From a virus (Duplodnaviria; Caudoviricetes), in the IMG/VR virus record IMGVR_UViG_3300028048_000086, positions 53,974 through 117,973 of that record: 64,000 nt of DNA. The stretch is one strand, 5' to 3'. Both the position numbers and the translations under genes were made by a program. Position 1 is the stretch's first letter. The number at the start of each line of letters is the position of its first letter. Positions 2,994 to 57,056 of the stretch are shown here, in pieces. The notes under the pieces are model-generated. The model saw only the letters and a list, made by a program, of their open reading frames with translations. It had not been told where the DNA came from and ran no database searches.

Positions 2994-4746
2994 CGTAGAT
3001 GTTCACCTCCATATCCAGCTGGTCGCGATAGCACGATGCATCGCCAATATTATTGAATGCCGCGAAACCTGAACGATGATAGTCATTCAAGCTAATCGCT
3101 AGAACAACGCAAAGGGCATCTTGTGCTACATTTACCGTTACGGCATGTCTGTAATCATCAGAGCGATAGAATCTCTTCGTCACCGTTCTCGATGATGTGT
3201 CGTACTTAATAGCGCATATCTCGTATGGAACGTCTTGGTCGTAGAACGCGACTTCGCCCTCGGAGTATTTTAGTATCGGCATTTTGTCGAAGAACTGACG
3301 AGTATAATTGAACTGTTTCATCCACTGATCGTGAATAAAGAAGATTGTGTTGTCGATGTCATTCGACAGTTCTTGGTGCTGAAGAATCTCGAAAATGGCC
3401 TTGTCTCGAATATCTTGCATCGTAAGATCATAGTCATGAGACAAGTTGGTGATGATATCTGAAACGGTATTGTATAGATTTCCCGCGCCGAATACCCGCT
3501 GGAAGCTCTGAAGAAAGCTCTTTGCGTAAGATAGATTCTCTACCAATTGGCGCTTCTTTCGATAATCGTCGATATCTCCCCGGATATCGAAACGAGCAAA
3601 TTTCGATATAATCTTGCCATCAGCATCTTTGATATATAACAAGATTTCGTCATCGATAAAGTCTGAACGAGTATCGATCGTCATAACTCTCTTGTTGATC
3701 TTATAGCGGCAATCGTACGTAACGTTCTCGAAGAGATCTGTCTCGCAAAGCGCCAGATAAAAGTCTTTTCTCGAACTAGCGAAGAAATCATAATCTGGAA
3801 TCGTAACATGAATCACGCGGTCGTCCAGATTGTCTCTCTTCACCGTGACACGATCTATGATATAATCTACCGGCTCTTTCTGTGTTTCAATGACGATGCG
3901 GGACTTGTCATCCTGTGTCAATTCAATATCCAAGTACGATAGCTCCGTATCATCGATAGAGTTTTCAATTTCAATATCGCGAGAAAGCCCTGAATAGGAT
4001 TCCCATAGGAATTTGGATCCTTCCTCATCCATTTGATAATGGATAAGTTCGAGAGCCATTTCCCCCTGAATGTAGAAATCCAGCAGATAGTATGTGTCTG
4101 GCGTCAAGCTCGGATAGAAGTCTTCATCAATTCCTCTCGTAGTTACATATACTTTTTCTCCGTCTTCGATTTTGAAGACATTTACGCTCGTAAAACCGGA
4201 AAACGGAGTTATGCTGAAACGTGCCGCATAATGAATAGAAACATCCGGGCAGTTTCTTTTATTGCATGACATCGATACAATATTTTCGTACTGCTCCGAT
4301 GCTAGAATCAGTTGATAGAAGCTTTTTCTTTCGAACTCCTGAATATTTTTCACTTCATGAAAAGCTTTTACCAGTGAGTAAGTATATCCATCATTCGCAT
4401 CTCGAATTTCGGCGATTACTTTCTTCATGTAATCTTCGTCGATAGGGGAGACGATGCGAGAATATATTTTCTCGTAAGTTTCGCTGTCTTTCTCAAGAGA
4501 AACATATGCTTCAATTTTTGCGGAACTGCCTTCTCCTGATGTCATCCAGAAAGAATAGAATCCTGCTCCTTCTGGAAAGCTTCTTATAATTGTTCGGTTC
4601 GACGCTACAGCAGCGGCATGAATCTCGTCATTGCCATTCTTCTGATACATAACAGAATTATATCCGACGTCCCATCCGTCTGTCCGGAAGCATAAGCCTC
4701 TTTCTCTCTGCCATAAAAGCGCTAGCGGCGCGTAAGATCTTCTCAT
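2986..4746 (-). CDS. hypothetical virion protein
   Basis: 586 aa ORF overlapping both neighbours in the tail operon; no recognised motif. Confidence 0.6.
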   Translation of the reverse strand: MRRSYAPLALLWQRERGLCFRTDGWDVGYNSVMYQKNGNDEIHAAAVASNRTIIRSFPEGAGFYSFWMTSGEGSSAKIEAYVSLEKDSETYEKIYSRIVSPIDEDYMKKVIAEIRDANDGYTYSLVKAFHEVKNIQEFERKSFYQLILASEQYENIVSMSCNKRNCPDVSIHYAARFSITPFSGFTSVNVFKIEDGEKVYVTTRGIDEDFYPSLTPDTYYLLDFYIQGEMALELIHYQMDEEGSKFLWESYSGLSRDIEIENSIDDTELSYLDIELTQDDKSRIVIETQKEPVDYIIDRVTVKRDNLDDRVIHVTIPDYDFFASSRKDFYLALCETDLFENVTYDCRYKINKRVMTIDTRSDFIDDEILLYIKDADGKIISKFARFDIRGDIDDYRKKRQLVENLSYAKSFLQSFQRVFGAGNLYNTVSDIITNLSHDYDLTMQDIRDKAIFEILQHQELSNDIDNTIFFIHDQWMKQFNYTRQFFDKMPILKYSEGEVAFYDQDVPYEICAIKYDTSSRTVTKRFYRSDDYRHAVTVNVAQDALCVVLAISLNDYHRSGFAAFNNIGDASCYRDQLDMEVNIYDG

Positions 4747-5801
4747 TCTTTCTTTTCACGCTCTCTTTCATCATAGTATTCTCGAGTCTTTGAGAAAGCG
4801 TAGTTGTAAGCTGCTCTGATCTTTTCTTTTCTATGCTCGTATCTATCTTTCTGTATCAGGCCGCTCTTATAATCTTTTTCGTTCTCATTGTCAAACCAAG
4901 CTTTTTTATCGCTGAGCTTTTTATTGAAATCTTCCCGAGTCGAATCCTGTAGTTCTCTTACGTCTAACGGAAAATCGGAAACGTATGGATTCGAGCTATC
5001 ATACTCTTTAGAAATTCCCGTGATAGATAAGTTGTAGTCATCATCGCTTGATTTTACCTCACCACTATCTTTTTTTACTGGGTTATCAATGGGAGTATTA
5101 TCGTTAACGTTATTGTTTACAGGGATATCGTTTATGGATAGCGGGCGATTGACACCAGCGCGATTTCCGTCCGTGACATTCGACAAATAATCTACATCCT
5201 TCGCGAAGAACTCAAACGTATTTTCAGTGTACATGTCCTGCACACTCATAACCTGTCCTTCTGATACAAAAGAAACACCGTAGATTGCCAAGCGAGAGCT
5301 ACTGCCGTATTCGTTGCTCATTGAAATCGTAACATTAATCGGCGGAATCTCGTCTATCAAAACATGAGATTTATTGCTAACAGCATTCAGGTATTCGTCC
5401 ATCATAGACTGAGCCCAGTGACGATCGAATACCGTAAAAATCATTTTACCGGCAACCATGCGATTGCTGAAGACATAACTCTTGTAATTCATGTCTCCGA
5501 GAACGCGAACTGGCATTTTCTGGTTATACAAGGAATATGATATCGTCTGCATCTCTCCGACGACCTTCGTAATGCTCTTTCCGCTCACCAACGGAAGTTC
5601 GAAGATGCAGATCATATCGTTGCCAGAGTAGCTCGTATAAGTACGAGTATACGCAGAAGCTACTGTTCCACCATATCCTTGAGATTTTGCCGATACTCCG
5701 CTCGTGTATGCTTTTTTATTTTCTTGAGCCGTATAAGCAGGAGAATCCACTTTCGGCTTGTCTACTATATTCAATGGAGAATCCCTCCGTTTTATACGCA
5801 C
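4743..5801 (-). CDS. tail tube paralog with C-terminal extension (likely true start TTG at 5774)
   Basis: YTRTYTSYSGND..GEMQTISY..KMPV..VAGKMIFTVFDR..DEIPPINVTISMSNEYG closely parallels the tube protein; GGAGG precedes 5774. Confidence 0.7.
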   Translation of the reverse strand: MRIKRRDSPLNIVDKPKVDSPAYTAQENKKAYTSGVSAKSQGYGGTVASAYTRTYTSYSGNDMICIFELPLVSGKSITKVVGEMQTISYSLYNQKMPVRVLGDMNYKSYVFSNRMVAGKMIFTVFDRHWAQSMMDEYLNAVSNKSHVLIDEIPPINVTISMSNEYGSSSRLAIYGVSFVSEGQVMSVQDMYTENTFEFFAKDVDYLSNVTDGNRAGVNRPLSINDIPVNNNVNDNTPIDNPVKKDSGEVKSSDDDYNLSITGISKEYDSSNPYVSDFPLDVRELQDSTREDFNKKLSDKKAWFDNENEKDYKSGLIQKDRYEHRKEKIRAAYNYAFSKTREYYDEREREKKE

Positions 5802-5802
5802 G

Positions 5803-5841
5803 AAAAAAGAGAGTGAGTTAATTTTTTAATTCACTCTCTTT
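5803..5841 (-). terminator. intrinsic terminator after tail tube gene
   Basis: GAGAGTGAGTTAA/TTAATTCACTCTC stem followed by T6 on the minus strand. Confidence 0.75.
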
Positions 5842-5868
5842 ATTACCGATTGTAGATATAAATATATC

Positions 5869-7963
5869 TTACTGGACGGCGCTCTCGCGCTCGATCGGCT
5901 TCATGTACTCGACGCGACGAGCAACGAACGTGCAGGCTTTCTCCGAGATGACATTGTCGATAGAAAAACCGCTCTGCTCGTTCAGGATTTCAACAGCGTA
6001 AAGAACGATTGAAGCCTTCTGGCCATATTCATTCGCGAACGAGATCGTGATATCGAACGGCGGAATTTCATCGGCGTACTTCGGCATAGCGACACTCGAG
6101 ATATTTTTCGCACGCGTCTCGGCTGCCTTCTGCATACCAGCATCCGTATTCGTATCGTTAGAACCGACGCCATTATTCGCGATACTCGTCATGTTCTTAT
6201 CCCATTCATCGATGGAGAGACGAGCATACTCGTTAGCATTTTCGTTATCTCCGCCGATACGATGGAACGACTTTTCTTTTCTGACGTGATCAGCTAGACC
6301 AGCGACAAGAGCATCACGGTCGAAAATTGTGAACACAAGAGAGCCCGCGACGCCACGTTTGCCACGAGAGAACGAACGAGGCTCTGCACTACCCATAGTA
6401 TAGCATTTATTGGACTATGCCTTTGGCAGCTCAAAGAGCTGCGTGTCTCGCATATTAGCAATAAAATCAGAATCTTTTATATGCAGTCGATAATACTTAT
6501 GTGTTCCTTTATTGTGAAAAACAGGTGTCGAATTAACATCAAGAAGATGCTGAATTCGTTTACACCACGCAAGTGTTCGATTGCTATCAGCTATTGGCAT
6601 GATTTCATTTCTTTCATCGAGAACGGTATGCGAAACATATAGAAGTTCTTGATCTTGATTGTCAAATGTGTTATTATCGAGAACATATTTTTTATATAGC
6701 TCATGCTTTCTGGATAAGCAACAGTCGTCTATGTCTCCATGATATAGCCACCAAATAATCAATCTTGCGAGATTTCCTTCCCACAGAATTTCCCAGACAT
6801 TATTTTGTGGTACCCATCTTGGCGCTTTTGGAGGAAGCATAAGAGTGTCAACAAGCGTATCACATACCCAATCAGTGATCTCTTTCTTCTCGTCTATAAA
6901 ACCAAATCTTACCGCGTTTCTTGAAGCACGATATGAAATGGTGCCATCGCCATCGACACATCCACGAATAAAATCTCGTTCATAGCCTTTTATCGCTTCT
7001 ACAGGAACTCTTTCTTTGATATCTGAAAATTCATCGATAATGTCCCTGCGATCGTAAACACGAATTTTGGGTTGTGGAGATTTATACTCGGAATAATCAT
7101 GAACAACGGCTTTAATTCCGAGAATTGCTTTTACCTTATGCATCAATTCCCTGTCAGCGTATTTACAGATAAACTGCATATGCGTTTCATCACCTTTTCC
7201 TCGATATGAAGGATGTGTAATGGCGCCATCTGACAGAAGATAACCTAAAAACCATGCCATTTTGCTATTCAATTTTGATTTCTCCTTTATATCCACCTAT
7301 AGGGGATTGGAATATTGCTAGGACCTCTTCAGGTCGAGTCTCTACGGGCTTTGATACTTTATGTATCTTACCCTCGGCGTTGGGTGCTAACCGTTCACCG
7401 ATTTGAGCGAGATTTTATGCCAGCCTACACTTATTAGGCAACCGGCGCTTTTTCCTTTTCTTTTAGATAGTTCGTTAAGCTATCTACTGCATCATATGCA
7501 GCTCGAGATTTCAATCTCGATGAGGAGACTATTTCTTCACCATGCCGCTTACGCGGTTTAGGGCGACCCATTTCGAAAGCACTTGCTTTCTATGGCTATT
7601 TCAAGCCTTAGTCGTTTGACCTTCCTGTTTCCAGGCTTGGCGACCAAACATCCCTTGTTAGCAGCTTTTAGACTTGCGTCATGAGCTATCTTCATCGTTG
7701 TTTCTGGATTTCTCCACCATCAACAAGGTTTCTATCTATCCTTGTTTGTGGTGATGAAGCTCTTAAGGAGTTACTGGTTTTAAGGTCGTGTCCCTGCACG
7801 GTTTCCCGTACAGCGGAGAATAAAATGCTTTTTATAGCGTTTCTCTTTGAACGTGATAGGTAATAGCTTGCAGCTCTCCGATGACGGTATCACCGAAAGT
7901 AGCTACGATGTCGCATCCTGAAAACGACGTATAAGTACGCGTGTAGCTAGAAGATATTGACAT
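5869..7963 (-). CDS. major tail tube protein, three exons join(7963-7844, 7454-7441, 6403-5869), 222 aa
   Basis: Exon 1 MSISSSYTRTYTSFSGCDIVATFG..ITYHVQR follows an AAGGAGG RBS; the micro-exon gives EKAPV; exon 3 gives YTMGSAEPRSFSRGKRGVAGSL. The spliced junction aligns without a gap to the intron-less paralog at 4743. Directly after the sheath gene. Confidence 0.85.
6404..7440 (-). mobile_element. group I intron 2 (IA-like) carrying a homing endonuclease
   Basis: P1 GCCGGU/GCUGGC with a U.G pair at the 5' splice site; AAAUCGGUGAA, AGAGACU and AAGGCAUAGUCC core elements; P3 UCUCGC/GCGAGA; terminal G; removal restores the frame. Confidence 0.9.
6415..7296 (-). CDS. intron-encoded double-motif LAGLIDADG homing endonuclease
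   Basis: WFLGYLLSDG and FIRGCVDGDG motifs; AT-rich; inside intron 2. Confidence 0.9.
   Translation of the reverse strand: MDIKEKSKLNSKMAWFLGYLLSDGAITHPSYRGKGDETHMQFICKYADRELMHKVKAILGIKAVVHDYSEYKSPQPKIRVYDRRDIIDEFSDIKERVPVEAIKGYERDFIRGCVDGDGTISYRASRNAVRFGFIDEKKEITDWVCDTLVDTLMLPPKAPRWVPQNNVWEILWEGNLARLIIWWLYHGDIDDCCLSRKHELYKKYVLDNNTFDNQDQELLYVSHTVLDERNEIMPIADSNRTLAWCKRIQHLLDVNSTPVFHNKGTHKYYRLHIKDSDFIANMRDTQLFELPKA
7455..7843 (-). mobile_element. group I intron 1 (IA-like, no ORF, about 389 nt; junction register ambiguous by up to 4 nt)
   Basis: P2 CUGUACGG-GAAA-CCGUGCAG, P3 CGACC/GGUCG, CAAACGACUA and GAAGAAAUAGUCU core, P7.1/P7.2 and three P9 hairpins. Confidence 0.85.
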
Positions 7964-8044
7964 GTTTTCCTCCTTGGTCTGATTATAAATTCAGGCGAGG
8001 GCGACGGCCCCCGCCCAAATATACTTTTCTTATATTTTCTCGAA

Positions 8045-10981
8045 TCAGCTATTCGTCGTAATGGTGTCAACCATCTTGATCGAGTTGCTGACCTCGCGAA
8101 TTTCATAGATCGGGATGATCTGATAGTCGATCTCGATACGGTTGAACTTCATGAGGCTCGGATCCGTATTCATCGTGAAGTCGTACTTCTCGATGAGCTT
8201 GTTGACGATCTTATCAAGTTCGGACTTGATCGCCGTATTAAGAGCATTACGGTTCGCCTGATGATTTTCCTTACCGATGAACGGCTCAGCAGCAGCACGA
8301 ATGAGCTCTTCAACTGCACCGACGATACGGCTCGTGGAAAGGCGACGGTAAATCGACTCTGCCGGAGCCATCGTGATACCATCCGTAACGACGATACCCT
8401 TCGTGAACGAGTTCTTGAAGGTGACTGCACCGTAAGACGTGAGGCGACCAAGCTGAGTATTCGTCAGCGTGTAGCTCGGCGTCGGAATAGAAATCGTCTG
8501 GCCCGTGGAGCTCTGATCAAGCGGAAGCGTTGAAACCATCGCGGCATAACCAGCGGCACCGTTGGAGATGTACTGATAGTTCGTGCTGCCAACCGTGATC
8601 GGATACTGACCGAAGACAAGAGAAACGTTCTTGCCAATCGGATACGGCATCGAGTTTGAATCCAGCATGTTGTGGCCGACGCTCGTCTTCGCGTAGAGAT
8701 CAAAATCACGATCAACGATCGAAGAAACCTTCTTCGCGACAGAAGCGAGGCCGAGATTCGAAAGCGTTTTAACACCGATCACACCATGCGTCGGAGCCGT
8801 TTTGATTTCCGTATACGTGCAGTGCTGTGCAAGCTGACGAACAAAGTTGTCGCTCGTACGATACGGAATATAACGAGAGTAATCATACGTGAGCTGACGA
8901 TCTTCGAGAGAAACAACCTCTGCCGGAGTTCCCGGGGTCGTCGTGCTCGGACCGCCACCGACACCCGGAACCGTCGTGCCCGGAGTAGCGAATGCCTTCT
9001 TCGCGTTCTCAGCTTCCTCGACAAAATCATCTTTTTCGAGAGAGCCGTCATCCGTAAGAGACGTGATGAACAGGCGGCTGAAAACTGTATCCGCATTAAG
9101 ATCTTCTGCGATTTCATCAACCGTAGACGTGTCAAAGATGTTCGAACGAACGATGACATGATTGAGAACTCCGCCGAGGTTCGTAGCTGCGACTGTAAGA
9201 ATATCAGAAGTATCCGTAGCAGACAGCTTCGAGAACTCGCCCTGCGGAACCATCGAACCGCTTTCTTCTTTATATACGAAAACCATGCTCATGTCATCAC
9301 CAAGAGCGTACTCCTTGCCAGCAGAAAGCGTATCGGCAATAAGAGCACCCGTTGCGTCAGCTTTCATGAGCTTAGCATCGCCTGTCGCGTCGATGACGAT
9401 ATATTTCGTTCCATCAGCAACCGTGCCGGAAACATCATCAATCGACTTATCGCCAACGCGCTTCAGCTTTCCGCCGACACTGATAAGCGTACCGTTATCG
9501 TAATCATCGACTTCAGGATCTGACGGGAGTTCAGCGATGATCTTGCGGATATCATCCGTATCGACCTTATCCATCTTATCAGCGATGGAGTCTGCATCCG
9601 TGATCTTCTCGAACTTGATATCAAACTTGCGAGCAGCCTTCAGATCAGACTGAGCAACGTTTGCTTTGACGCGGATATCGCCGCCAAGGACGATTGCATC
9701 ATTCGCGGCTGCAACGCGGAACGAATTTGCTCTCGGAAGTTTGCCGTTGATGCTTTCATCCGCACTAGCGCAGGTAAGAACGCGATACTTTGCATTCGAG
9801 TCCTGAATGACCGAATAAATGCCATCCGTGATAGCAACAACATGATTCGAATCATCAGCTTCAGATTCCTTGATGCGCGGACGGAGCTCTTTGCCTTCGC
9901 TATCAACACGGCGAATCGCATGAGCCGTAATAGCGTAGCCCATGCCGAGACGCTGGTAAATATCGAACGGCGTCATGCTCGTTTCCTCGTAGTCAATGTC
10001 GTCCTTCGTGAAGACACGATCCGTGAGATCTGCCGTCTCGAGGAAATCCCAATCGTCAACCATGAGAACTCCGGCTTCACGAAGATCCTTACGCAGATCC
10101 GACATCTTATTGTCATAAATCGGGTAGGGGAGCGTGATATCCGTATTCTTAACGAGCTTGCGATAATACTTGTCATCGAAAGACGTATACGGCTTCATAT
10201 CATCGTTGGCGATATAGACGAACTTCGTCTTCGTCATGATGTTAGCCTTCGAGTTCGTGCTCGAACGGCCGATGAAGTAAGCGCCCGGATACATTGCGCC
10301 GATAGAAAGCTCGTAAGCTTCCGGCGTATTCGTAACGTCATTGCCATCCTTATCAACAATCAAGAGCTTCAGGACATTGTTGAAAGCATGATTGTTGAAA
10401 GCATTGACAAGATCGACGAGGCGGTCATTACGGGAGAGGCCGTTATCGAGAGCGAGCTTGATCGTATTCTTGATAACCGTCTTGTTGCCCGTAGCGACGC
10501 CGCGCTTTTTCTCGGCAATCGTTGCGCGTTCGATCGGCTTATAGAAAGAAATCTCTTCTAGGCCAGCGCGATCGTCATAGCGCATATAGCATTCCTTGCC
10601 GATGTTCGTAGGGAACATCGAGGAAAGACGGAGCTTGTACTTAGAATCAACTTTTAGATTGAAATCCTTGTACATGTCGATGCCGCCGATACGGCAAGCA
10701 TAAATCGTGCGGCAGCCGCGATCCCATGCATCCTGGATGCCCGCGACCAGCGTGACTTCTTGGCGCTTCTTGCTGTCATACGGCTGACCGAACATATAGA
10801 TAGCATGCTCGACGCTATAGACAGGAGTAAGCACGCCAACAGGGCCGTTGAACGCGGTTCCGATGATGATCTCAGAGTCGGTCGTGCCGAAGAGACTGGT
10901 GTCGTAACCGAAAGAGTAATCGGCTTCGACATGAGTAATTACACCCGGGAGTGTAATATCATCCTCGAAAATGTTACTCAT
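8045..10981 (-). CDS. tail sheath protein
   Basis: 978 aa; N-terminal LPGV..IIGTAFNGPVG and C-terminal DGITMA..RLSTSRIV..EPFIG..IIPIYEIREV sheath motifs; precedes the tube gene. Confidence 0.85.
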   Translation of the reverse strand: MSNIFEDDITLPGVITHVEADYSFGYDTSLFGTTDSEIIIGTAFNGPVGVLTPVYSVEHAIYMFGQPYDSKKRQEVTLVAGIQDAWDRGCRTIYACRIGGIDMYKDFNLKVDSKYKLRLSSMFPTNIGKECYMRYDDRAGLEEISFYKPIERATIAEKKRGVATGNKTVIKNTIKLALDNGLSRNDRLVDLVNAFNNHAFNNVLKLLIVDKDGNDVTNTPEAYELSIGAMYPGAYFIGRSSTNSKANIMTKTKFVYIANDDMKPYTSFDDKYYRKLVKNTDITLPYPIYDNKMSDLRKDLREAGVLMVDDWDFLETADLTDRVFTKDDIDYEETSMTPFDIYQRLGMGYAITAHAIRRVDSEGKELRPRIKESEADDSNHVVAITDGIYSVIQDSNAKYRVLTCASADESINGKLPRANSFRVAAANDAIVLGGDIRVKANVAQSDLKAARKFDIKFEKITDADSIADKMDKVDTDDIRKIIAELPSDPEVDDYDNGTLISVGGKLKRVGDKSIDDVSGTVADGTKYIVIDATGDAKLMKADATGALIADTLSAGKEYALGDDMSMVFVYKEESGSMVPQGEFSKLSATDTSDILTVAATNLGGVLNHVIVRSNIFDTSTVDEIAEDLNADTVFSRLFITSLTDDGSLEKDDFVEEAENAKKAFATPGTTVPGVGGGPSTTTPGTPAEVVSLEDRQLTYDYSRYIPYRTSDNFVRQLAQHCTYTEIKTAPTHGVIGVKTLSNLGLASVAKKVSSIVDRDFDLYAKTSVGHNMLDSNSMPYPIGKNVSLVFGQYPITVGSTNYQYISNGAAGYAAMVSTLPLDQSSTGQTISIPTPSYTLTNTQLGRLTSYGAVTFKNSFTKGIVVTDGITMAPAESIYRRLSTSRIVGAVEELIRAAAEPFIGKENHQANRNALNTAIKSELDKIVNKLIEKYDFTMNTDPSLMKFNRIEIDYQIIPIYEIREVSNSIKMVDTITTNS

Positions 10982-53561: not shown

Positions 53562-54629
53562 ATGAATAAGTACGATGGATGGCGCGTAGAGCTGGGCGGG
53601 GTCGTCAACGGTTATTTCTCCCGCAAGAACTATTTATTCGTGGGAGAGAAGGATTACGATGAGCTGAAGCAGAAGTTCATCGATCTATGTCATAATCGAG
53701 ATGTCTATCAGTGTGCTTATATCTATAAGAACGATGATTATGACCACTGCGAGATGATTGCCAATCCCTACCTGGATTTCGATACAGAAGATATCGAAGA
53801 TCCGGCAGAATGGGAAGAGCTGACGAGAGAAGTCAAGTACGTCCTGAATTATATCGAGTCTTCGATGGGCATCCCGCCGGAAGAACTAAGAGTATATTTT
53901 TCAGGATCCAAAGGTTTCCACGTTATTATCCCGCATGAGCTGATCGGTCTCGCGCCGTCCACCGTATTGAATCAGTCTCTCCGATATTTTGCGCTAGGTC
54001 TAAGTTACGTATTAAACGGCAGAAAAGTTCGTAAGAACTGCATCGACACGGGAATTTATGATCGAAAAAGGCTGATAAGGATTCCGGGAACTATTAATAG
54101 CAAGAGCGGGCTCTATAAGATACCTATATCCATTGACCAGCTATACGATTTCTGCTATAATGACGTAAGAGAAGCGGCGAGAGTCCCCCGAGAAGACCCC
54201 GCCGCGATTCTTACGTATCGATCCGTAGCCCGCGAAGGCTTTTTAGAGATCGTAGAGCTAGGTAAGAGATATGAGGCTGAGAGCACCGGTCGAAAATACC
54301 GTAGGAAAATCAACAAAGAAACTCGTACGGATAAGAAGCTACTCCCTTGCGCAGAAAAATTACTCAAAGAAGGCGCGGAAAGAGGCTCCCGGAATCATTC
54401 GTGCTACGCTCTCGCTTCCAGCCTTCTTCAAGCTGGATACGAAAAAGAAGAAATGGAAGAAGTCATCGTTAAATGGAATGATGACTTGGAAGAACCTTTA
54501 CCCGGTTCAGAGGTCGAAGCTACCATCAAGAGCGCCGAAAAGAATTTCGATAACGGCATGATGGTCGGCTGCGGCAAATACCGAGAACTGGATTTATGTG
54601 TCGATACTTGTTCCTTGCTAAAGGAGTAA
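53562..54629 (+). CDS. archaeo-eukaryotic primase (AEP) with PriCT-like C-terminal domain
   Basis: YLDFD, YFSGSKGFHV, IDTGIY..RLIRIP, EG..RGSRN..WN..PL..EV..TIKSA. Confidence 0.88.
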   Translation: MNKYDGWRVELGGVVNGYFSRKNYLFVGEKDYDELKQKFIDLCHNRDVYQCAYIYKNDDYDHCEMIANPYLDFDTEDIEDPAEWEELTREVKYVLNYIESSMGIPPEELRVYFSGSKGFHVIIPHELIGLAPSTVLNQSLRYFALGLSYVLNGRKVRKNCIDTGIYDRKRLIRIPGTINSKSGLYKIPISIDQLYDFCYNDVREAARVPREDPAAILTYRSVAREGFLEIVELGKRYEAESTGRKYRRKINKETRTDKKLLPCAEKLLKEGAERGSRNHSCYALASSLLQAGYEKEEMEEVIVKWNDDLEEPLPGSEVEATIKSAEKNFDNGMMVGCGKYRELDLCVDTCSLLKE

Positions 54630-54799: not shown

Positions 54800-54893
54800 G
54801 GGCAGATACTCAAGTGGCTATAAGAGGACAGTCTTGAAAACTGTGAGCTCGTAGTGATACGAGGCGGGGGTTCGAATCCCTCTCTGCCCGCCA
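54800..54893 (+). tRNA. tRNA-Ser(UGA)
   Basis: Cloverleaf, long variable arm, GTTCGAATCC, CCA end. Confidence 0.9.
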
Positions 54894-54943
54894 TTATTTT
54901 TTTAGTTCTATTTCCTAGAGCTCTTCCATGGGAGCTCTTAAAA

Positions 54944-55020
<77 letters not shown>

Positions 55021-55022
55021 AC

Positions 55023-55096
55023 GCGGATATAGTGTAGTGGTAACACCTCAGCCCTCCAAGCTGATATCACGGGTTCAAATCCCGCTGTCCGCTCCA
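55023..55096 (+). tRNA. tRNA-Gly(UCC)
   Basis: TCAGC-CCTCCAA-GCTGA anticodon arm, CCA end. Confidence 0.88.
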
Positions 55097-55185
55097 AAGA
55101 ATATAAAAGCGTAAGCTTTTATATAAAGGTTTACCCCCTATATGAGGTTGATACGCGTCGCTTGCTAAGGCGTATCAACCGTCAA

Positions 55186-55261
55186 GGCTCCGTAGACAAG
55201 TCGGTTAAGTCAGCGGGTTTTCATCCCGCGATCGTCGGTTCAAGTCCGGCCGGAGTCACCA
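55186..55261 (+). tRNA. tRNA-Glu(UUC)
   Basis: GCGGG-TTTTCAT-CCCGC anticodon arm, CCA end. Confidence 0.9.
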
Positions 55262-55265
55262 TTAT

Positions 55266-55340
55266 GCCGGTATAGCACAACGGTAGTGCATCTGACTTGT
55301 AATCAGAAGGTTGTAGGTTCAAATCCTATTGCCGGCTCCA
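55266..55340 (+). tRNA. tRNA-Thr(UGU)
   Basis: TCTGA-CTTGTAA-TCAGA anticodon arm, CCA end. Confidence 0.92.
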
Positions 55341-55346
55341 TTTAAA

Positions 55347-55432
55347 GCCGAAGTGGTGGAATGGCAGACACGAAACGTTTAGGCCGTTTTGAGCGAGAGC
55401 TCGTGCAGGTTCAAGTCCTGTCTTCGGTACCA
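55347..55432 (+). tRNA. tRNA-Leu(UAG)
   Basis: AAACG-TTTAGGC-CGTTT anticodon arm, long variable arm, CCA end. Confidence 0.88.
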
Positions 55433-55437
55433 TTTAT

Positions 55438-55525
55438 GCCTGAGTGGTGGAATTGGCATACACATTGGACTTAAAATCCGACGCTCGCTAAGAGCATACG
55501 GGTTCAAATCCCGTCTCAGGCACCA
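55438..55525 (+). tRNA. tRNA-Leu(UAA)
   Basis: TTGGA-CTTAAAA-TCCGA anticodon arm, long variable arm, CCA end. Confidence 0.9.
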
Positions 55526-55534
55526 TGAAAATTT

Positions 55535-56135
55535 ATCGACGTATCAAACATGAAAGCGAGAGAACCTAGTGCATGAACGCGATGCCACGCGTCTAGGAGT
55601 ATCTGAAGAAACCATACGGATGAGGAGCCTCGGGTGATAGTCCGAGATACTCACGTCAGTTCCTGTTAGGCGAAAGTCGCAGGGCGGCATCTTGAAAGAT
55701 AGATGTTTCCGATAGGATACGTGCTTCTCGCGAAAGAGGATAATGCTCGTTTTGATCGTACGTCCCACAAGAGTTCTTATGAACCGCCAGATAAGGTCGC
55801 GCTTGCCGGCGCGGCATAACTCGCGGCAAAAGGCATCAAGGGATAGGCTATGATGCCGGAGAAATCCGGATATAAGTACGATAGCGGAACGATTAGCGCA
55901 TAGGCCGTTATAATGGTGCCTGAAAAAGGCGAAAAATATAACAATGCTGAATGGTGCGTGAAAGTTGGGAGTCCTAGTCTCCCTCGGATCACCGTGTTCT
56001 TTTAGAACGCGGGGTATAGGAAGCGCGGATTAGCTACCCGTTGCTCAGCCCTATATCGTCCGGTAGCATAATCATCCAGAGTCGTAAGAGGGGTATGGCG
56101 AAAGCTGCTCCCGCTTTCATGTTTGATGCGCCGAT
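55535..56135 (+). ncRNA. ROOL-like large structured RNA (about 600 nt)
   Basis: About 28 bp terminal helix between 55535-55562 and 56108-56135; many internal hairpins; size and tRNA-cluster context match ROOL. Confidence 0.65.
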
Positions 56136-56162
56136 GAGATTGAAAGAGGTATACAGAAACTC

Positions 56163-56348
56163 ATGCCTATTTACAATATGTTTTCTTTAGGAATTTCCTT
56201 CGTCGTATTCTTCTTCCTGGTCTTCGCTATTTCCGTAACGGGATTCATGGCGTATGATCTCGCCTCTTTCGTCGTAGATATTATCAAGGAAAAGAGGCGA
56301 GGAAAGAAAGATGAAGAATCGGACATTTATTTTTATGACAGAAGATGA
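56163..56348 (+). CDS. small membrane protein
   Basis: 61 aa with a hydrophobic stretch; GAGG RBS. Confidence 0.5.
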   Translation: MPIYNMFSLGISFVVFFFLVFAISVTGFMAYDLASFVVDIIKEKRRGKKDEESDIYFYDRR

Positions 56349-56415
56349 ATGGCTCCTGACCGCCTGCGTTATCGCGGCGGCCGCATTCACGTTCTTCTTC
56401 GGTGAATAAATATAT

Positions 56416-56490
56416 CGGGGTATCGTCAAGTGGTTAAGACACGGGACTTTGACTCCCGCATCACCGGTTCAAATCCGGTTACCCCCGCCA
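56416..56490 (+). tRNA. tRNA-Gln(UUG)
   Basis: CGGGA-CTTTGAC-TCCCG anticodon arm, CCA end. Confidence 0.88.
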
Positions 56491-56491
56491 T

Positions 56492-56569
56492 AGGGATATA
56501 GCTCAATTGGTAGAGCAGCGGTCTCCAAAACCGTCGGTTGAATAGGTTCGAATCCTTCTATCCCTGCCA
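56492..56569 (+). tRNA. tRNA-Trp(CCA)
   Basis: GCGGT-CTCCAAA-ACCGT anticodon arm, CCA end; irregular T stem. Confidence 0.85.
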
Positions 56570-56972
56570 TATGGTTCTCGATGGAGTAGTGGCCAGAGAG
56601 AACCCGACTTTGGTGTTCGTATCTCCTTGCGATCTCCTCTCTTCTAGGTGAACGGAAGAGAGGAGATATTACCGGTCAGAGAAGGCAATACCTTTGATAG
56701 ACCGATCACCTACTTTCACCTCTATCGCTTTCAAGGTGAATGAAAGCGCGGCCCGAAGAAGGCGACCTTTCCGGATAGCCTAGGAATAGAAGTCCCCGGA
56801 AAGGCTTTATGATTCGAACGAGGCAATACCTCGGAAGAATCTATTTTCAAGTTCATAGACCCAGACGGTCAGATGAACGACGGTTATCTCGATGATCGTA
56901 GTTTTTTAGGAGAAGATCCGTCTCCGATATCTGAAACTGATCGAGAGTCCTAGGCATGACATAACTGCCTAT
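56570..56972 (+). ncRNA. candidate structured RNA (about 400 nt) between tRNA-Trp and the CAU tRNA
   Basis: ORF-free run of hairpins; two AGGCAATACCT elements. Confidence 0.4.
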
Positions 56973-56979
56973 TTATCAT

Positions 56980-57056
56980 GCTCCTCTAGCTCAGTTGGTT
57001 AGAGCATCCGGCTCATAACCGGCTGGTCCTCAGTTCAAGTCTGAGGGGGAGCACCA
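56980..57056 (+). tRNA. tRNA with CAU anticodon (Ile2 or elongator Met)
   Basis: CCGG-CTCATAA-CCGG arm; paired G1-C72, so not an initiator; CCA end. Confidence 0.88.

Follow-up and report, generated by a model that had tools for sequence, protein, structure and literature searches.

On the minus strand of a 64,000-nucleotide (nt) stretch of DNA from a virus of the class Caudoviricetes (positions 53,974 to 117,973 of IMG/VR record IMGVR_UViG_3300028048_000086; hereafter, the window), we identified a gene, probably for the tail tube protein, that is cut into three exons by two introns, the middle exon being only 13 or 14 nt long. In RNA, both introns are precisely removed and the exons are accurately ligated. 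Very probably, group I introns invaded this gene on two independent occasions and both are precisely spliced, yielding a tube protein of 222 amino acids (aa). The record comprises 117,973 bases and is rated 46% complete, which puts the phage genome at about 250 kb. An earlier note, made from the letters of the window alone, had described the gene as split by two tandem group I introns around a 14-nt micro-exon.

Reading frame, ligated RNA and identity of the split gene

The split gene and the neighbors discussed below all lie on the minus strand of the window. The parts of the gene, including an open reading frame (ORF) within the second intron, are the following.

Exon 1: 7963-7843, minus strand; 121 nt, from ATG 7963 to G7843; encodes M1-R40 and the first base of E41
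Intron 1: 7842-7454 (alternatively 7843-7455), minus strand; 389 nt, no ORF; predicted group I intron, IA-like
Micro-exon AAAAAGCGCCGGT: 7453-7441, minus strand; 13 nt; codes for (E)KAP plus bases 1 and 2 of the V45 codon
Intron 2: 7440-6404, minus strand; 1037 nt; predicted group I intron with a LAGLIDADG-type ORF inside
LAGLIDADG-type ORF in intron 2: 7272-6415, minus strand; 285 aa from TTG 7272 (start in the ORF list, GTG 7296)
Exon 3: 6403-5869, minus strand; 535 nt including the stop codon; from the third base of V45 to Q222

Exon 1 lies in an ORF of 43 codons (7963-7832) that reads MSISS...ITYHVQRE and ends in TL-stop, two codons past QRE, as the earlier note had it. The protein resumes, also as stated there, at C6403, where the frame picks up as GT|C TAT ACT ATG GGT; the ORF proper comprises 175 aa from Met 6396 to the stop at 5869, and its frame is open upstream to C6403. 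Between these two ORFs lies an insert of ~1.4 kb with the LAGLIDADG-type ORF of 285-293 aa. QRE closes exon 1, YTMG opens exon 3, and only GAAAAAGCGCCGGT at 7454-7441 (minus strand) supplies (E)KAPV; the note's assignment of EKAPV to these positions is borne out, this being the sole match to a degenerate EKAPV pattern in the window on either strand, with 0.04 expected by chance. The five residues are required because KAP is invariant in homologs: R40, K42, A43 and P44 do not vary across 21 of them, and the intron-less ones read ...ITYHVQREKAP[VI]YTMGS. The joined sequence also matches the paralogous gene at 5801-4743, which contains ISYSLYNQKMPVRVLG, as claimed. Two other statements held in part. 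Exon 1 is missed by the ORF track at the default cut-off of 60 aa, and at that cut-off only; and a micro-exon of 14 nt is possible, as is one of 13 nt, given that the intron 1 junction slides by one base (G|A or A|G). Under the A|G alternative, exon 1 ends with A7844 and the micro-exon has 14 nt, starting from G7454.

Joining 7963-7843, 7453-7441 and 6403-5869 produces a coding sequence (CDS) of 669 nt with one terminal stop, encoding 222 aa. In the alignment to intron-less homologs that had been proposed as a check, the spliced protein is identical to the intron-less protein P0002 at 204 of 221 residues (92%), and the first 70 columns of the alignment are free of gaps. The junction at residues 40/41 reads ...HVQR|EK. 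Retention of either intron brings a stop by codon 47; if the micro-exon is skipped, the frame shifts and a stop comes at codon 77.

The public runs in which this stretch is present are from bovine and sheep gut samples. We compared, over positions 5700-8100, the contigs of three bovine metatranscriptome runs, X3 and X12 from one sample and X11 from a different sample and study (two samples in total), with those of the probable source DNA run, X1. Contigs in all three RNA runs join 7840 to 6403, the flanks matching without a single mismatch, and between the flanks stand ten letters that fit neither, AAGCGCCGGT (minus strand). The mature RNA thus reads ...CAAAGAGAAA-AAGCGCCGGT-CTATACTATGG..., the exact doubly spliced product, in which the 10-14 exon bases between the introns are kept. 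RNA across the junctions was a check suggested in the earlier note, and absence of a doubly spliced product was what would have spoken against its reading; the joint is present in X3, X11 and X12. DNA run X1 covers the whole stretch with a single contig in the unspliced form only, with no joint. In X3, the joined contig (4310 nt) extends upstream into the tail sheath gene, which indicates that the tube and sheath genes are transcribed together. The RNA runs also contain intron sequence, on contigs of its own, and no outer exon-intron junction is reached by any of these. One X3 contig, 7447-7825, crosses the 3' splice site of intron 1 by 7-8 nt into the micro-exon and ends 6 nt short of the intron 2 cut; this possible hint of an intermediate composed of intron 1 and the micro-exon was not used, as contigs cannot show RNA ends.

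Structure comparison points to a tail tube protein with the contractile-tail tube/Hcp fold as the gene product. The AlphaFold model built from 83 diverse homologs has a predicted local distance difference test score (pLDDT) of 83.3, and that from 21 close homologs a score of 39.6. The best Foldseek matches in the PDB are the tube proteins of phage 812, HFTV1, PVC, AFP, lambda (gpV) and T4 (E 7e-6 to 1e-3), among the named clusters of the ESM Atlas the Phi812 tail tube family is nearest, and one homolog, from a Bacillus phage, carries the annotation tail tube. Searches with the protein gave no Pfam match above threshold and nothing useful among PDB sequences. The earlier note's call of a tail tube gene is further supported by the gene directly upstream:

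Tail sheath gene: 10981-8045, minus strand; 978 aa; PHROG tail sheath family phrog_16991, E 2e-57

The tube family phrog_9206 is labeled 'major head protein' in PHROGs, and so it is in RefSeq for Bacillus phage 0305phi8-36, whose ORF140 (NC_009760 41456-42028) belongs to this family, and for Acinetobacter phage ME3. In view of the tail-tube fold found in the fold search, this label appears to be wrong. The AlphaFold model places both insertion sites where strand 26-45 of a long beta-hairpin ends.

Homologs of the 175-aa ORF are abundant in phage contigs of 100-400 kb, and many are 210-230 aa long and read ...GELQAITYHVQREKAP[VI]YTMGSAEPRSF. In public collections, the tube protein analyzed here appears as the 175-aa fragment or as pieces of 43 aa and 175 aa. 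Among the 120 closest protein clusters, ~20 begin at MGS and several more start by reading through the 3' end of an intron; about one-third of the related clusters look truncated in the same manner. By this measure, introns appear to be common in the short REKAPVYTMGS-coding stretch of the tube gene.

Structures of the two introns

The junctions of intron 2 are unambiguous (U7441| ... G6404|), the RNA being joined at exactly 7441/6403. The predicted pairings are as follows.

Intron 2 P1: GCCGGU 7446-7441 with GCUGGC 7424-7419, minus strand; 6/6 positions pair, with U7441·G at the cut
Intron 2 P10: GUGUAG 7430-7425 with CUAUAC 6403-6398, minus strand; 6/6 positions pair; directly 5' of the P1 guide
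Intron 2 P3: UCUCGC 7412-7407 with GCGAGA 6451-6446, minus strand; ~950 nt between the strands, spanning the ORF
Intron 2 P7: GACU 7340-7337 with AGUC 6416-6413, minus strand; 8 nt from the terminal G
Intron 2 P8: 6442-6426, minus strand; covaries

The intron lacks P2, ends ...AAAUG6404|C with omega-G, and has merely those 8 nt between P7 and omega-G. Across the window and the related phage loci L026 and L029, compensating changes occur in P1, P3, P4, P7.1 and P8. The guide tracks the exon (CACCGCU with GGCGGUG in L026; GCCGGU with GCCGGC in L029), and P3 is altered on both sides (UCUUGC/GCAAGA in L026; UCCUGC/GCAGGA in L029). A P7.1 hairpin GACCU/AGGUC (GGCU/AGCC in L029), followed by the ORF-bearing arm, fits subgroup IA. 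When viral contigs were scanned with the intron 2 core pattern, the L026 contig was the sole match.

The ORF within intron 2 encodes a putative homing endonuclease of the LAGLIDADG type: it contains two such motifs, FLGYLLSDG and IRGCVDGDG, matches the endonuclease family phrog_4645 (E 1e-15) and scores 21.5 bits against Pfam LAGLIDADG_3, where the cut-off is 22.5. Its probable start, TTG 7272, follows a conserved AAAGGAG and aligns with the ATG of L026. At the other end, the last codons overlap the 3' strand of P3 and P8, and the UAG stop is itself part of the 3' strand of P7.

For intron 1, the classical R and S elements were found by eye, UCAAACGACUAAGG and GAAAUAGUCUCC, and nhmmer retrieved nine more family members, several at other genes or sites. 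A model comprising P2-P9.2, P7.1 and P7.2, with P3/P7 as a pseudoknot, was built by hand and scored on the 10-sequence alignment A1.

Intron 1 guide (internal guide sequence, IGS) UUCUC: 7820-7816, minus strand; pairs with GAG|AA
Intron 1 P2: 7813-7794, minus strand; from the hand-built model
Intron 1 P3: 7788-7783 with 7569-7564, minus strand; from the hand-built model
Intron 1 P7: GACUA 7613-7609 with UAGUC 7531-7527, minus strand; from the hand-built model
Intron 1 P9.2: 7486-7464, minus strand; the model also has P7.1, P7.2, P8, P9 and P9.1

In this model, 87.8% of the cells are paired vs 67.9% in shuffles, none of the 500 shuffles reaches the model, and 70 of the 90 pairs are changed on both sides; in a control with the partners slid by 1-3 columns, 31-42% of the cells are paired. 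P2, P3, P5a, P5b and P6 are 92-100% paired, and the P7.1/P7.2 hairpins, GGCU/AGCC and GAAAGC/GCUUUC, covary, which fits subgroup IA. The RNAalifold consensus of four intron 1 copies yielded no group I fold, and blastn of intron 1 against isolate phages returned only core matches of 33 nt, in Streptococcus and Lactococcus phages. Intron 1 thus fits a group I fold of the IA-like type, while lacking the U·G pair at its 5' splice site and scoring below the Rfam gathering cut-off.

The RNA junction confines the end of exon 1 to 7844-7840 (A, G, A, A, A), so that no reading places U at position -1. Intron 1 ends ...AAAAGG, with either G7455 or G7454 as a possible omega-G, both consistent with the RNA joint, and the requirement for a terminal G leaves two junctions: G7843|A7842 with G7454|A7453, or A7844|G7843 with G7455|G7454. 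We favor the former, because the ligated GAG^AA pairs continuously with the guide; the exact junction would thus probably be G7843|A7842. The guide UUCUC is conserved in four divergent copies at this insertion site (site 1; that of intron 2 is site 2), pairing with GAG|AA. Relatives of intron 1 at other sites (L193, L116, L186) have a standard GGGU| paired with GCCCC and a normal U·G. The intron 1 family is also found in other phage genes (L116, L186, L115, L135), with normal U·G and, in some cases, an ORF in the P1 loop. One paper calls the U·G pair critical to group I catalysis (PMC8395846), and our literature searches for natural group I 5' splice sites with a base other than U turned up no systematic source. 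The site-1 intron of L118 (minus strand, ~3520-5100) has a P1-loop ORF, and its tube frame is off by one base relative to the GAGAAAC motif; it was rejected as an arbiter of the intron 1 junction, since a terminal G and the conserved E41 are not obtained together in any reading.

In the micro-exon, the 3' half GCCGGU, six bases long, is the P1 strand of intron 2; the 5' end, the first few A's, forms at most a short, weak P10 with intron 1, of which only the first two pairs are conserved. The earlier note's reading of the micro-exon as the P1 strand of intron 2 is supported by the pairing GCCGGU/GCUGGC. Given that P1 and P10 use separate halves of the micro-exon and that each intron occurs alone in relatives, base-pairing by itself would force no order, and the imposed splicing order that the earlier note had suggested as possible does not appear to be implied.

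Intron alleles in relatives and alternative explanations

The comparison set consisted of the contigs for truncated homologs and 80 related viral loci. Among these phages, we observed tube genes with no intron, with intron 1 only, with an intron at site 2 only, or with both sites occupied. The relevant loci are listed below.

L001 and L005 (the latter at 90% protein identity): intron 1 without a second intron; downstream exon continuous (GAAAAAGCTCCGAT[A/C]TACAC)
L023 and L025: an intron of the intron 1 family at site 1, its P1 loop containing a LAGLIDADG ORF
L026: intron 2 homolog alone, at site 2
L040: site 2 only, occupied by a different intron that has no ORF
L037 (2254-3060): both sites occupied; micro-exon GAAAAAGCACCGGT with one synonymous change; intron 1 homolog, second intron of the L040 type and third intron at codon 60
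L029 (1150-3330): at least 4 introns; 23-nt micro-exon at 1902-1924

The synonymous variants of the micro-exon are GCA in L037 and GCT in L001 and L005; the third intron of L037 lies 15 codons downstream of the double-intron site. Because the second intron of L037 belongs to a different family, the double arrangement arose at least twice, and, judging from these alleles, the five-codon stretch of the tube gene is a hot spot for at least three intron families, with homing as its likely cause. These single-intron alleles and the RNA joint also support the earlier claim that two group I-type introns flank a retained micro-exon. In L029, the intron 2-type intron has an extra hairpin and a near-duplicate of the target, ~20 nt long, after the expected terminal G and before the true exon; no in-frame 3' splice site after G is visible there, which may mean that the gene is broken or that its 3' site is unusual.

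Under the explanation that we favor, mobile group I introns would have entered the major tail-tube gene of a ~250-kb rumen phage on two independent occasions, each time in the highly conserved REKAPVYTMGS-coding stretch near the tip of the long beta-hairpin. One intron would have inserted between codons 40 and 41 and the other within codon 45, leaving the exon of 13-14 nt. The tube gene would be co-transcribed with the sheath gene and both introns excised, to give the 222-aa protein. Intron 2 would act in the standard mode, with the last six bases of the micro-exon paired to the IGS, U·G at the cut, P10 with exon 3 and an omega-G end; intron 1, with its full group I core, would set the guide UUCUC on GAG|AA and cut after a purine, without the U·G wobble.

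Several points weigh against this explanation. The U·G pair, a defining feature of the 5' splice site in nearly all group I introns, is absent from intron 1, which scores 14.4 bits (E 0.31) against Rfam RF00028, short of the gathering cut-off of 50, in a match that is full-length and on the correct strand and place (7503-7843, minus strand). A search of 5500-8500 gave no Rfam intron match at E ≤ 1, hence none for intron 2, as expected for RF00028, because the 860-nt ORF splits the core; the structure of intron 2 is derived from just three sequences. Protein-free self-splicing is a prediction for both introns. The RNA data consist of assembled contigs, not raw reads, and carry no levels, ends or splicing order, the DNA control is one run, and an intron-free DNA allele with identical exons may, formally, have been the source of the joined contig.

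The missing U·G allows two further readings. Both introns could be real, with intron 1 dependent on a helper, be it a host or phage protein, an endonuclease in the role of maturase, or the neighboring intron 2 if it is removed or folded first, so that splicing would be ordered or cooperative. We regard this as unlikely, without dismissing it. In its favor, none of the RNA junction readings gives U at -1, an engineered Anabaena intron in which U·G was reversed to G·U no longer reacted (PMC12355055), sister introns at other sites retain U·G, and the two ribozymes are merely 13 nt apart; however, L001 and L005 carry the site-1 intron alone with intact, conserved exons, which indicates that the neighboring intron is not required, and the guide conserved in four divergent copies argues for a working P1. 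A tentative proposal, to which we give slightly greater weight while still considering it doubtful, is that the site-1 introns are a natural group I lineage without the U·G wobble that chooses its site after a purine in a Watson-Crick pair (G-C or A-U), is accurate in vivo and, at a spacing of 13 nt, is forced into a fixed order or cooperation on the shared micro-exon.

Concerning the joint itself, splicing might not be the source of the joined contigs: an intron-free allele of the same phage, present alongside it, could have given rise to them through contaminating DNA or through its transcript. DNA can occur in RNA libraries, related phages do have intron-free and single-intron alleles, and several DNA runs hold about 40-75% of the words of the stretch, which may reflect single-intron alleles. 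Nevertheless, the closest intron-free protein found is only 91% identical, whereas the joined contigs are mismatch-free, including the window-specific codons GCG CCG GT; no joined contig is present in DNA run X1; unlike what contaminating DNA would produce, no intron contig in the three RNA runs reaches the outer exon-intron junctions; and the longest RNA contig ends at 5838, beside a hairpin and U-run that follow the stop codon. We therefore consider such an origin of the joint very improbable. Still more remote, to the point of being nearly negligible, is a single composite element, either a twintron or one 1.4-kb intron, in which the EKAPV-coding 14-mer would be a chance match or a relic. 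The cores are separated by only 13-14 nt and Rfam shows no clear intron boundaries, but the ten letters AAGCGCCGGT are present in mature RNA, in relatives either intron is found by itself at its respective site, and the pattern is unique in the window while K42, A43 and P44 are invariant. A twintron in particular was rejected, the introns lying side by side with exon bases between them retained in RNA, and so were translational bypass and an intein, the inserts having stops in all frames and the RNA itself being joined. Double invasion followed by precise splicing of both introns thus remains the reading that we adopt.

Known systems and surroundings of the locus

Phage introns of subgroup IA, such as those in T4 td, nrdB and nrdD (sunY), have a core with P7.1/P7.2, carry an endonuclease ORF in a peripheral loop and are inserted at highly conserved codons. 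The introns described here share the IA-like core with P7.1/P7.2, the peripheral-loop ORF and the insertion at conserved codons; in contrast to the T4 type, intron 2 lacks P2 and a P9 hairpin and its ORF runs through P3' and P8 into P7, and intron 1 cuts after a purine. In orf142 of Staphylococcus phage Twort, later recognized as the tail-tube gene, three group I introns were found that splice themselves, along with skipping of exons (Landthaler & Shub 1999, as cited in PMC11878797); the Twort GenBank record has no joined CDS and no product names. The likeness is that of a tail-tube gene cut by several group I introns, and the best PDB matches of our model are to the tube of the Twort-like phage 812. 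Here, however, the host genome is that of a rumen giant phage related to Bacillus phage 0305phi8-36, and the introns are two, of different families, 13-14 nt apart, one with a LAGLIDADG gene that overlaps the core and the other without U·G.

In Bastillevirinae, complementary DNA reads revealed a small exon flanked by two phage group I introns (Nucleic Acids Res.; the size of the exon is not stated in the text). That arrangement resembles ours, except that the introns there interrupt genes for nucleotide metabolism, polymerase and terminase, whereas here the gene is structural. In placozoan mitochondrial cox1, RNA data revealed a single-base micro-exon between two group IB introns (PMC5436844). 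There, too, the micro-exon is too short for a full P1 or P10 and separates two independent group I introns, the downstream one following a base other than U (C); the differences are an organelle instead of a virus, an exon of 1 nt vs 13-14 nt, and another intron subgroup. New here are the 13-14-nt exon, the two unrelated introns with independent recurrence, the confirmation at the RNA level and the purine at the 5' splice site of intron 1. For annotation, the case means that gene callers fail to see a virion protein that is both essential and abundant. For intron mobility, it would provide a natural system for competition between homing endonucleases with nearly overlapping targets and, for RNA catalysis, an RNA-backed group I intron that apparently works without a U·G pair, 13 nt from a second ribozyme. 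The locus allows direct tests of 5' splice site choice and of the exon length needed by a ribozyme.

Downstream of the split gene, and not part of it, lies the following gene.

Paralogous tube-like gene: 5801-4743, minus strand; 352 aa with a C-terminal extension; no intron; phrog_9206, E 5e-35

The C-terminal extension of this intron-free paralog is ~140 aa long, acidic and basic, and a second tube copy like it is present at every related locus, as the second tblastn match. Right after the tube stop codon, at 5805-5843 (minus strand), is a strong A/U-rich hairpin followed by the U-run near which the longest RNA contig stops; a terminator scan did not flag this hairpin, probably because of too few G-C pairs in the stem. 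Elsewhere in the window, at 54800-57053 (plus strand), ten transfer RNA genes are clustered around a full-length ROOL RNA (55541-56126; 177.8 bits, E 3.5e-38).

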